Shown here: positions 4,327 to 5,660 of the stretch, one piece after another
Layout: each line of letters starts with the position of its first letter
Position numbering within the stretch: position 1 is the first letter of the stretch
DNA from: a virus
Taxonomy: Monodnaviria > Loebvirae > Hofneiviricota > Faserviricetes > Tubulavirales > Inoviridae
Length of the DNA stretch: 13,368 nucleotides
Strand: one strand, 5' to 3'
IMG/VR virus record: IMGVR_UViG_2630968543_000001
Notes under the pieces: model-generated
What the model saw: only the letters and a program-made list of their open reading frames with translations
What the model was told of the DNA's origin: nothing
Databases searched by the model: none
Position numbers and translations under genes: made by a program

Positions 4327-4349
4327 GAGGTTATTATGGAGATTGAATT

Positions 4350-5660
4350 ATGGAAATTGGGTTCCCTTTTATGGGGGATCGTCTCAGCTTATGTCGTTAT
4401 TCTTGGGCTAAGAGGCTGACGGTTTATTCCTTTATTTTTTCCTTTCTCTGGGTTTCCTTTCCCCGATATTCATATTCATTTGTACCAGCAATTGCAGCAG
4501 TGGCTGCGCGGGCTGTTATTCCTAAAGTCGTTGGCCGGGTGCTTGTTCGTCGCTTTGCTGCCAATGATGCGATTTATACGGCATCACAGCTTACAGCAAC
4601 CCGTGTTTTTGTTGGCCGCGCTGCGGCTAATGCTGCCGAATACTTGCCTGCTGCCTCATCATACAAAATGAGCGGTGTTGCAACGTGGGCGGGTATTGCT
4701 GCTGCTGTATCATCTTTTGTTCCGTCTTCTTTGAGTTCATCTGACGGCTCGGTAATGGTAATGACTAACGGTAAAAAGATTTCCGATAATTTATATGAAG
4801 TAACGTACAGTGGTCAAAGTGGTGAAAGTAAGACGATAACCGTTAATTTTGAACCACAGGAATTAAGTCCGGTAATCCTTCATGTTAGTCGTAATAATGT
4901 GGATGCGGGTTCTCCAGTTGTAGGTGTTGAAACAGGATATTCCACGCCAGATAATGCACTTTATTATTATCAGGATTCGAAAGAGCTAATTTATTACTAT
5001 GGTGATAATCCAACTGAAATTGCCAGAAATTATCTTAATGACTATAACTCGCGTACTTATACTGAAACACTAACAAATTTTGAACGCACTGTGACGAATA
5101 AAGTTGTCAACAGTAATGGAGATGTATCCTTTACTGAACAGAATTATAAGTTTACTTATCCTTCCTCATTTTATGAAATACCTGAGATTACACACTTGTA
5201 TAGCAACCCGGCCGCATCTTCATTTCCCGCAGGTATTCCCATGTATGAAAATGTAGCAGGGCTTCCCATGTATTACAGCGTTGCTTATTTAACAGCAGGC
5301 AAGCAATATCAGTATCACAACACGCCTTGTAAAACGACTAATCAGTCAAATGGTGGATATTCGACGATTTGCGCCGTTCCTGAAAAAGAGGATTACACCG
5401 CAAAAGATATTGATGAAAAGAGTGAGCTTACTATCTGGACCAATACCAAATATAAAGCCATGACGGAAGTACTGGAGGCCGGAAATATTGAGTCCATGAT
5501 TGATTATCTGGAGTATCTTGATAGTGTTAGTGTATCGCCAGCACTTCTTGCCGACATGATTAACGAGCTGTGGTCTGAAGCTGCCGTAATACTGCACGTT
5601 TGTCTCATTCCTGAGACTGTTAATCCTTTTACTCTTCTCCAGACACCGCTTTTTTCATAA
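4350..5660 (+). pseudogene. Truncated copy of the pIII-like adsorption protein gene, cut by the tandem-duplication junction
   Basis: The 436-aa translation is identical to the first 413 aa of the 570-aa ORF at 8215-9927, up to WSEAAV. It then reads 23 unrelated codons (ILHVCLIPETVNPFTLLQTPLFS) from the antisense of the repressor 3' region before stopping at 5658-5660. Confidence 0.7.

Follow-up and report, generated by a model that had tools for sequence, protein, structure and literature searches.

A small conserved coding frame at the start of gene III in a YpfPhi/CUS-type filamentous prophage

The 27-codon frame and its surroundings

The prophage analysed here, IMG/VR record IMGVR_UViG_2630968543_000001, is a stretch of 13,368 nucleotides (nt) from a filamentous phage (inovirus) and is referred to as the window. 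Between its major coat protein gene g8 and a gene III-like gene lies a small open reading frame (ORF) of 27 codons plus TGA, which encodes MEIELWKLGSLLWGIVSAYVVILGLRG and occupies positions 4336..4419 of the plus strand (stop 4417-4419). Because of an exact 3865-bp tandem duplication the feature occurs again at 8201..8284 on the same strand, where the identical second copy precedes the intact gene III. An earlier note on this DNA had pointed to the ATG at 4336 with a GAGG 5 nt upstream, to the 27-codon frame with its stop and to a recurrence of the arrangement at 8201-8536; these features were recovered as described, and the recurrence is a second exact copy of the 3865-bp unit.

The sequence ahead of the small ORF carries two signals. 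The GAGG, a Shine-Dalgarno sequence read directly from the DNA, is located at 4327..4330 of the plus strand (copy 2: 8192-8195) and separated from ATG 4336 by a 5-nt spacer; GAGG or AGGTG is retained at equal distance in relatives. A scan for terminators located a terminator-like hairpin (ATGGGCGATGCAATATCGCCCGT) with a T-run after g8 at 4297..4324 of the plus strand (copy 2: 8162-8189), and an alignment of relatives showed that its stem is retained via compensatory changes. The first base of this stem, at 4297, begins an in-frame ATG that opens a 40-amino-acid version of the peptide, which some Yersinia pestis records list as a 'hypothetical protein'. ATG 4297 was rejected as the start of the small ORF because of its place in the terminator stem and its lack of conservation in three homologous loci (L023, L024 and L025). 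The 27-residue peptide has a single hydrophobic helix (residues 8-25, mean Kyte-Doolittle value 2.1) and neither a basic N-terminal region nor a cleavage motif. The window contains 148 ORFs of at least 25 amino acids, among which one of 27 codons is by itself unremarkable; the small ORF rises above chance because it is conserved.

The long ORF had been taken by the earlier note to open at ATG 4350 with a GGAG upstream, and a GGAG, candidate Shine-Dalgarno sequence of gene III, is indeed present on the plus strand at 4338..4341 (copy 2: 8203-8206), 8 nt before this ATG. It is composed of the last G of the small-ORF ATG and of codon 2 (GAG) of the small ORF, and it is conserved in all sequences of the Escherichia coli/Salmonella/Brenneria/Phytobacter clade. 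The gene III copy that opens at 4350 (4350..5660, plus strand) is not intact. It is authentic to 5585 (about 412 codons) and then runs through 24 unrelated codons across the duplication junction, while the intact gene III-like (puvA-type) ORF of 570 amino acids lies at 8215..9927 on the plus strand (phrog_3942, E=4.5e-253). Codons 1-22 of gene III overlap the small ORF in the -1 frame. Three overlapping frames had been proposed at this place, but there are only two, since the third candidate, a '63-aa ORF' with a TTG start at 4480..4671 (plus strand; copy 2: 8345-8536), shares the frame of the small ORF (= 1 mod 3) with one TGA between them.

Selective constraint on the overlapping frames

Homologous loci were collected from Salmonella, metagenomes, Brenneria alni and Phytobacter, with gene III proteins that are 89%, 83%, 66%, 64% and 37-39% identical to that of the window. 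The small peptide is kept in all of them, for which MEMELWKLGSLLWGIVSAYVVILGLRG, MELELWKLLSLFWGIISAYVVILGLRG and MWDIVVFLWGLLCAWAVIQGLSGH stand as examples, and it is retained even where gene III is only 33-39% identical or alignable at its C-terminus only. Residues 1-16 of gene III, which lie in the overlap, differ among these loci at most positions, often non-conservatively. Nei-Gojobori counts for six representatives yielded a ratio of nonsynonymous to synonymous differences per site (pN/pS) of 0.14 in the small-ORF frame, while the gene III frame gave 2.24 over codons 1-22 and 0.17 over codons 24-107. Thus, the small-ORF stop marks the exact point at which constraint leaves the small frame and takes hold of the gene III frame. 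The frame of the 63-aa ORF, which the earlier note had considered as a coding candidate, is unconstrained (pN/pS 1.46) and broken by in-frame stops in four relatives (L024, L025, L027 and L031), and this ORF is not a gene.

The same pattern was obtained in three phylogenetically independent close pairs, in which synonymous and nonsynonymous differences in the small frame numbered 8:1, 6:2 and 9:4 (pN/pS 0.04, 0.11 and 0.12; binomial p = 7e-5, 5e-3 and 2.5e-4). Read in the gene III frame, the very same differences are 0:8, 1:7 and 2:11. By this pattern of substitution, the ORF at 4336-4419 and 8201-8284 is recognised as a real protein-coding gene under purifying selection. The idea that the 27-residue hydrophobic frame may be genuine had been raised before and gains support from this selection and from the 53 distinct relatives described below; the outcome that would have spoken against it, purifying selection on the long frame alone from 4350, is the reverse of the pattern observed.

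To follow the peptide beyond the close relatives, a degenerate DNA pattern of its ten core codons (W-G-[ILM]-x-[SC]-A-[YW]-[VA]-V-I) was run against IMG/VR contigs. It matched 94 stretches, nearly all on contigs of 5-14 kb. Of 88 matches analysed, all but one were located inside a tiny ORF, and once duplicates and peptides of more than 35 residues had been taken out, 53 distinct peptides of 19-30 amino acids were left. Their ORFs start mostly 8-13 codons before the pattern (a few 3-6) and stop 3-6 codons after it; as the pattern covers the ten core codons only, these boundaries are not imposed by the search. The family consensus reads ..LWYxxxFxWGLLCAWAVIxGLxG, with the core WG-[LIM]-x-[SC]-A-[WY]-[AV]-V-I-x-G, and the window peptide belongs to the family, aligning with 38 other members without internal gaps. 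Where an upstream ORF was found, it ends like a major coat protein (e.g. ...AIMAVAASLVTLYAGVAGVRWVLRTVKSA). A hairpin with a T-run lies within 80 nt upstream of the small ORF in 44 of 51 family loci, compared with 3 of 51 control windows; this explicit scan with a control window replaced a first automated terminator criterion, which was too crude (15/52). Searches of GenBank phages by tblastn with three family peptides retrieved only metagenomic 'Dulem virus' and 'Inovirus D_HF' records and, as weak matches (E = 4-7), records of Staphylococcus and Vibrio phages.

An open frame of at least 300 codons crosses the small-ORF stop in the -1 frame for 42 of 54 distinct peptides, one of which was longer than 35 residues and later excluded. 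The gene III start overlaps the small-ORF stop in 12 cases (ATGA in 8, GTGA in 3, TTGA in 1) and is an ATG 0-20 nt after the stop in 10. In a further 24 only an internal ATG is available, overlapping the small ORF and usually placed 34 nt before its stop, and seven contigs have no long ORF; there was no case with a long ORF and no plausible gene III start. The starts at or after the stop lead into textbook signal peptides (e.g. MKRALVLILILLMPLQTFA|AA), and in several family phages a stop codon keeps the gene III frame closed up to a point 1-13 nt short of the small-ORF end. Because of this geometry of starts and stops across the family, the small ORF is a separate gene and a frameshift fusion with gene III is excluded. 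The usual internal ATG coincides with Leu-Cys codons of the small ORF, and the GGGG of the Trp-Gly codons forms a Shine-Dalgarno-like element upstream of it.

The start of gene III in the window is affected by these results. RefSeq and the Prokaryotic Genome Annotation Pipeline (PGAP) place it at the GTG of codon 51 (window 8365 = 4500), which drops 50 codons including LTVYSFIFSFLWVSFPRYSYS (residues 23-43), a stretch that resembles a signal peptide in its hydrophobic core and cleavage region. Since codons 24-50 are constrained (pN/pS 0.07, p = 1.5e-6), as are codons 51-107 (0.08), the GTG start is very probably wrong and too late. For the same reason ATG 4668 (codon 107), which the earlier note had offered as a possible true start, was rejected: purifying selection begins right after the small-ORF stop, codons 24-107 are constrained, and half of the homologues have Ile at this residue. 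No ATG, GTG or TTG occurs in the gene III frame of the window between codons 8 and 51, in spite of the constraint on codons 24-50; barring a non-canonical codon, gene III therefore starts inside the small ORF. Two candidates remain within it, ATG 4350/8215 with GGAG 8 nt upstream and ATG 4371/8236 without a Shine-Dalgarno sequence. ATG 8215 is made by the Leu5-Trp6 codons of the small frame (TTA/CTA TGG), and the third base of the Leu5 codon is A in 8/8 distinct clade sequences, while neighbouring synonymous sites vary. Taken together, the sequence features make ATG 8215 (4350 in copy 1) the most likely gene III start.

Two further candidates were set aside. The ATG of codon 8 had looked like a 'conserved start' but is uninformative, because the Trp codon read there in the small frame allows only NTG, and Brenneria has CTG. 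Re-initiation at a CTG overlapping the stop (CTGA) is unlikely, as the AAGAGG abuts it without spacing and sister clades have ATA or TTA instead. For a partial gene III copy in another genome, PGAP chose the ATG of codon 8.

With respect to the remaining N-terminus of gene III, the earlier note had remarked that the first 100 codons of the long ORF are rich in alanine; residues 44-106 (window 8344-8532) are in fact 28.6% Ala and basic, with a net charge of about +6. This segment contains the motif RRFAAND, and distant homologues have RGFAAND about 30 residues past the signal peptide, so that the Ala-rich segment is taken to belong genuinely to the conserved N-terminus of these gene III proteins. 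It is followed by a second hydrophobic stretch (residues 110-124), and the protein has a C-terminal membrane anchor. An AlphaFold2 model of the 570-residue protein from 8 sequences reached a mean predicted local distance difference test score (pLDDT) of 43, with residues 1-143 all below 50, and was uninformative for the Ala-rich region; it drew a long helix at residues 45-98, likewise with pLDDT below 50. A positive-inside reading would put the Ala-rich segment in the cytoplasm, which would be odd for a pIII N-terminus.

The prophage, its duplication and its annotation

As a dif-site filamentous prophage, the window belongs to the YpfPhi/CUS type known from E. coli and Y. pestis. Its gene III protein and that of Y. 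pestis NCTC5923 are 100% identical and the prophage adjoins hipBA in E. coli, and by these sequence matches the phage is identified as YpfPhi/CUS-1/CUS-2. The region 7600-9000 was found at 99% identity or more in 107 of 5426 complete E. coli genomes, in which the prophage adjoins hipBA; phage-carrying genomes have it at a median of 2 places. A near-identity DNA search of GenBank phages gave no match, and the element is known as a prophage and not as a phage record.

According to Pfam hits, the gene order is that of YpfPhi/CUS phages: repressor, pII-type replication protein, G5P-type protein, coat protein, gene III (puvA), DUF2523 (pVI-like) protein, Zot (pI) and secretin. The window genes comprise a helix-turn-helix repressor on the minus strand, a pII/X-type replication protein of 350 amino acids, a G5P-type single-stranded DNA (ssDNA)-binding protein of 105 amino acids, the DUF2523 (pVI-like) protein, a Zot/pI ATPase and a secretin. 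The major coat gene g8 (77 amino acids) occupies 4052..4285 (copy 2: 7917-8150) of the plus strand and was assigned from a weak Pfam Phage_Coat_B match and from phrog_2186 'virion structural protein' (E=4e-29). Between the ssDNA-binding gene and g8 lies a gene for an 83-residue protein with a C-terminal hydrophobic helix (7631-7882 and 3766-4017), which belongs to phrog_3679, a group of unknown function. The repressor, replication, morphogenesis and secretion modules described for YpfPhi, with YPO2276-YPO2278 as morphogenesis genes (PMC4266046), are likewise found in the window. The name puvA is that of the gene III-like gene in E. coli K1 (PMC4266046).

The duplicated units span 1721-5585 and 5586-9450 with 0 mismatches, and among 5426 complete E. 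coli genomes a single one (strain STIN_95, NZ_CP054965.1) contains the junction sequence. The left edge (1721) lies in the loop of a perfect 9-bp hairpin at 1708-1734 (ACGTGCAGT-gttggtaat-ACTGCACGT), and the right edge lies inside gene III at GCCGT|TAATGCC (5585/5586 and 9450/9451). The GGTAAT of the loop is similar to the GTTAAT at the other edge, and the microhomology at the junction amounts to 2 nt. Possibly the edges are a nick site of Rep and a pseudo-site, and a mini-circle of 3865 nt was re-integrated through recombination. Other partial tandem arrangements of this phage family were seen in E. coli KC-Dl-1 (L022) and in a metagenome (L028); among relatives, tandem examples show a full copy followed by a partial copy, and a duplicated repressor-plus-rep module that recalls RS1/CTX arrays. 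In three relatives of the 64%-identity group (L027, L028 and L029) a 230-residue secretin fragment directly follows the gene III ORF without pVI or Zot between them. These loci are probably deleted, defective prophages, in which the small ORF is still intact. By the attL side the window carries a 264-residue accessory gene (381-1175, minus strand) with a REase_DpnII-MboI nuclease domain (Pfam E = 7e-59), which also matches PADLOC 'Aga_Helical-REase' (E = 1e-34) and PDC-S35 and, from these domain matches, is likely anti-phage defence cargo on a filamentous prophage. The accessory position is taken by AbiJ/Abi_C in L028, and in L023 it gave a faint DUF4145 match.

The small ORF is not annotated by RefSeq/PGAP in E. 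coli, nor in the inspected GenBank record of a metagenomic relative, nor in two other annotations examined. In a collection of 15 billion proteins the exact 27- and 24-residue peptides are absent and only the 40-residue version is present. Gene callers usually apply a minimum of 90 nt, and since the small gene measures 84 nt including its stop, it is likely absent from most inovirus annotations. No paper describing the small ORF was found, in a search that did not extend to the primary YpfPhi and CUS papers; a review of YpfPhi counts 13 ORFs and does not name the 27-codon ORF among them (PMC4266046).

Proposed role and comparison with known systems

We propose that the small ORF is a real, overlooked gene for a tiny membrane peptide of a widespread inovirus family, and that the peptide most likely acts as a minor virion or assembly protein in the manner of pVII and pIX of the Ff phages; we assign this reading a probability of about 0.6. 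The pVII and pIX proteins of Ff measure 33 and 32 amino acids, are single helices without signal sequences and occur as five copies apiece at the first-emerging tip, and their basic C-termini contact the DNA packaging signal (PMC10175506). The small peptide agrees with them in size (27 residues; 19-30 in the family), in its one hydrophobic helix, in the absence of a signal peptide and in the location of its gene in the structural module, and to this extent the resemblance to minor coat proteins of pVII/pIX size, already remarked on in the earlier note, holds. Its N-terminus is in this clade mostly acidic or polar (MEIE...), as is that of pVII (MEQVA...; PMC10175506). A pVII/pIX-like function in the virion or in assembly is suggested by analogy.

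Several points weigh against this proposal. No similarity of the peptide to Ff pVII or pIX or to Pfam or PDB entries was found: a Pfam scan up to E 10 and a PDB search with the family profile both gave no match, and hhalign returned a probability of 2.2% for the family against pVII and 1.3% against pIX, using pVII and pIX sequences of which only the lengths and the MEQVA start were confirmed (PMC10175506). In PHROGs the window peptide had no match, and one relative matched phrog_18360, a group of unknown function, weakly (E = 0.046). The position differs as well, since genes VII and IX of Ff lie between V and VIII, whereas the small ORF lies between VIII and III, past the gene VIII terminator. 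The window peptide has an acidic N-terminus and a basic C-terminus (E2, E4 ... R26), but a basic C-terminus is not conserved in the family, whose members end in ..GLES, ..GIDG, ..GLNG or SL besides ..GLRG and ..GLKG. Because of the missing similarity, the different position and the unconserved C-terminus, the claim is that the peptide works like pVII/pIX and not that it is a member of either family. Moreover, the family sequences are related to each other, so the locus counts overstate the number of independent observations; translation of the 27-residue peptide and its presence in the virion are predictions from sequence, and so is the choice of gene III start codon in this clade (ATG 8215, ATG 8236 or a non-canonical codon).

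The most serious competitor, which we regard as distinctly less probable, holds that the peptide is translated and conserved but is not a virion component, serving instead as a helper of pIII assembly or insertion, as a peptide for superinfection exclusion or in another accessory, membrane-active role. Constraint and a hydrophobic helix would be expected of small membrane proteins in general, the family does not preserve the C-terminal charges that a tip protein in contact with DNA should have, and the tight coupling to gene III could mean a partner specific to pIII; on the other hand, the small ORF always lies within the structural module between g8 and gene III, and only one other candidate, the 83-residue protein (7631-7882), is available for the pair of small tip proteins required by Ff-type virions. 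The coupling could also be read in another way, namely that the ORF is a regulatory leader whose translation sets the level of gene III by coupling or start competition, its peptide being functionless. The ATGA, GTGA and TTGA overlaps of relatives are classic coupling signals, and ribosomes cannot occupy both starts of the window, 14 nt apart, at once. Such a leader is nevertheless improbable, as the constraint acts at the level of amino acids (pN/pS 0.04-0.12 in the close pairs), WGLLCAWAVIxGL is kept across the 53 variants despite many synonymous changes, and pure coupling would not need a fixed hydrophobic helix.

The relation of the two frames might furthermore be explained if the small ORF encoded the true beginning of the gene III protein, linked to the rest through a programmed -1 frameshift or separated from it by a sequencing or assembly error, which would fit the position of gene III in the -1 frame and the change of constrained frame at the small-ORF stop. 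We consider this very improbable. Eight diverged sequences share no slippery heptamer near the stop, every relative keeps this stop codon, and at least 22 relatives have their own gene III ATG, GTG or TTG at or just past it, followed by a canonical signal peptide, with the gene III frame in several of them closed until 1-13 nt before that point; an error in sequencing or assembly is countered by the identical sequence in more than 100 complete E. coli genomes. Just as little credit is given to a chance ORF, with only the long frame from ATG 4350 coding, even though the window has its 148 ORFs of such size and RefSeq/PGAP annotate nothing here, for the observed substitutions run contrary to this reading and both ends of the ORF are kept throughout the family.

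The small gene lies past the g8 terminator and directly against gene III, together with the genes of the low-copy proteins pIII and pVI, and from this position a product at the low level of a minor virion protein is expected. Translation of the small gene is tied to that of gene III, whose product is the attachment or 'pilot' protein. Many relatives have the gene III start on the small-gene stop (ATGA/GTGA/TTGA) or up to 20 nt after it, and a canonical signal peptide comes next. The YpfPhi/CUS clade lacks such a start (CTGA in the window), and gene III most likely begins 67 nt farther upstream, at ATG 4350/8215 in the -1 frame inside the small gene; the sequences suggest that the YpfPhi-type overlap arose by this loss of a start and upstream shift of initiation. 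With this start, the Shine-Dalgarno sequence and ATG of gene III are built from the Met-Glu and Leu-Trp codons of the small gene, and the 22-residue N-terminal extension of the gene III signal peptide is free to vary while the small peptide is constrained. The two starts, 14 nt apart, may compete for ribosomes and thereby set the ratio of both products. More tentatively, and with somewhat less than even odds, the undescribed family might be the missing tip or assembly-initiation protein of a large non-Ff clade that includes the plague-associated YpfPhi, and the overlap a rare and datable case of overprinting, in which a start migrated into the small gene, the N-terminus of the gene III signal peptide came to be read from the -1 frame of this constrained gene, and the 14-nt distance fixes the product ratio.

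YpfPhi and CUS-1 have been linked to the fitness of pandemic Y. pestis and of E. coli K1, and their gene lists and RefSeq appear to miss a conserved gene. A mutation or insertion close to where puvA/gene III begins would alter the small gene as well, so earlier phenotypes may be confounded. The small proteins at the leading tip of non-Ff filamentous phages are largely unknown, and the family is a concrete candidate in a culturable organism. By its sequence, what is new is a predicted small hydrophobic inovirus protein that forms a new family, sits at a different position and overlaps the next gene.

A parallel in gene order is offered by the Vibrio phage VGJphi, which has the same succession of ssDNA-binding gene, an ORF of about 81-83 amino acids, major coat gene, an ORF of 27-29 amino acids, gene III, gene VI and gene I. 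Its orf29, a 'putative minor capsid protein' by prediction in the GenBank record, lies between orf44 (major coat) and orf493 (adsorption protein). Like the small peptide it is a single hydrophobic helix of 27-29 residues, and the two have no evident sequence similarity. In VGJphi, orf29 and orf493 do not overlap and the 25-nt gap between them holds the terminator, whereas in the window the terminator precedes the small ORF. The positional equivalent of the 83-residue window protein is VGJphi orf81, also a 'putative minor capsid protein', without significant similarity (E = 2.7). The 83-residue phrog_3679 protein is the only other small structural candidate, and the pair would fill the two roles of tip proteins.

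The manner in which the small gene is joined to its neighbour also has a counterpart in Ff phages, where the V/VII/IX/VIII junctions consist of overlapping or translationally coupled small genes. Translational coupling to neighbouring genes is common to pVII/pIX and the small ORF, and in the family an ATGA-type overlap of stop and start likewise joins a small structural gene to the next gene. The YpfPhi clade differs from the Ff junctions in that the start of the following gene has shifted by 28-67 nt to a place inside the small gene, so that two frames are read and one of them is constrained.

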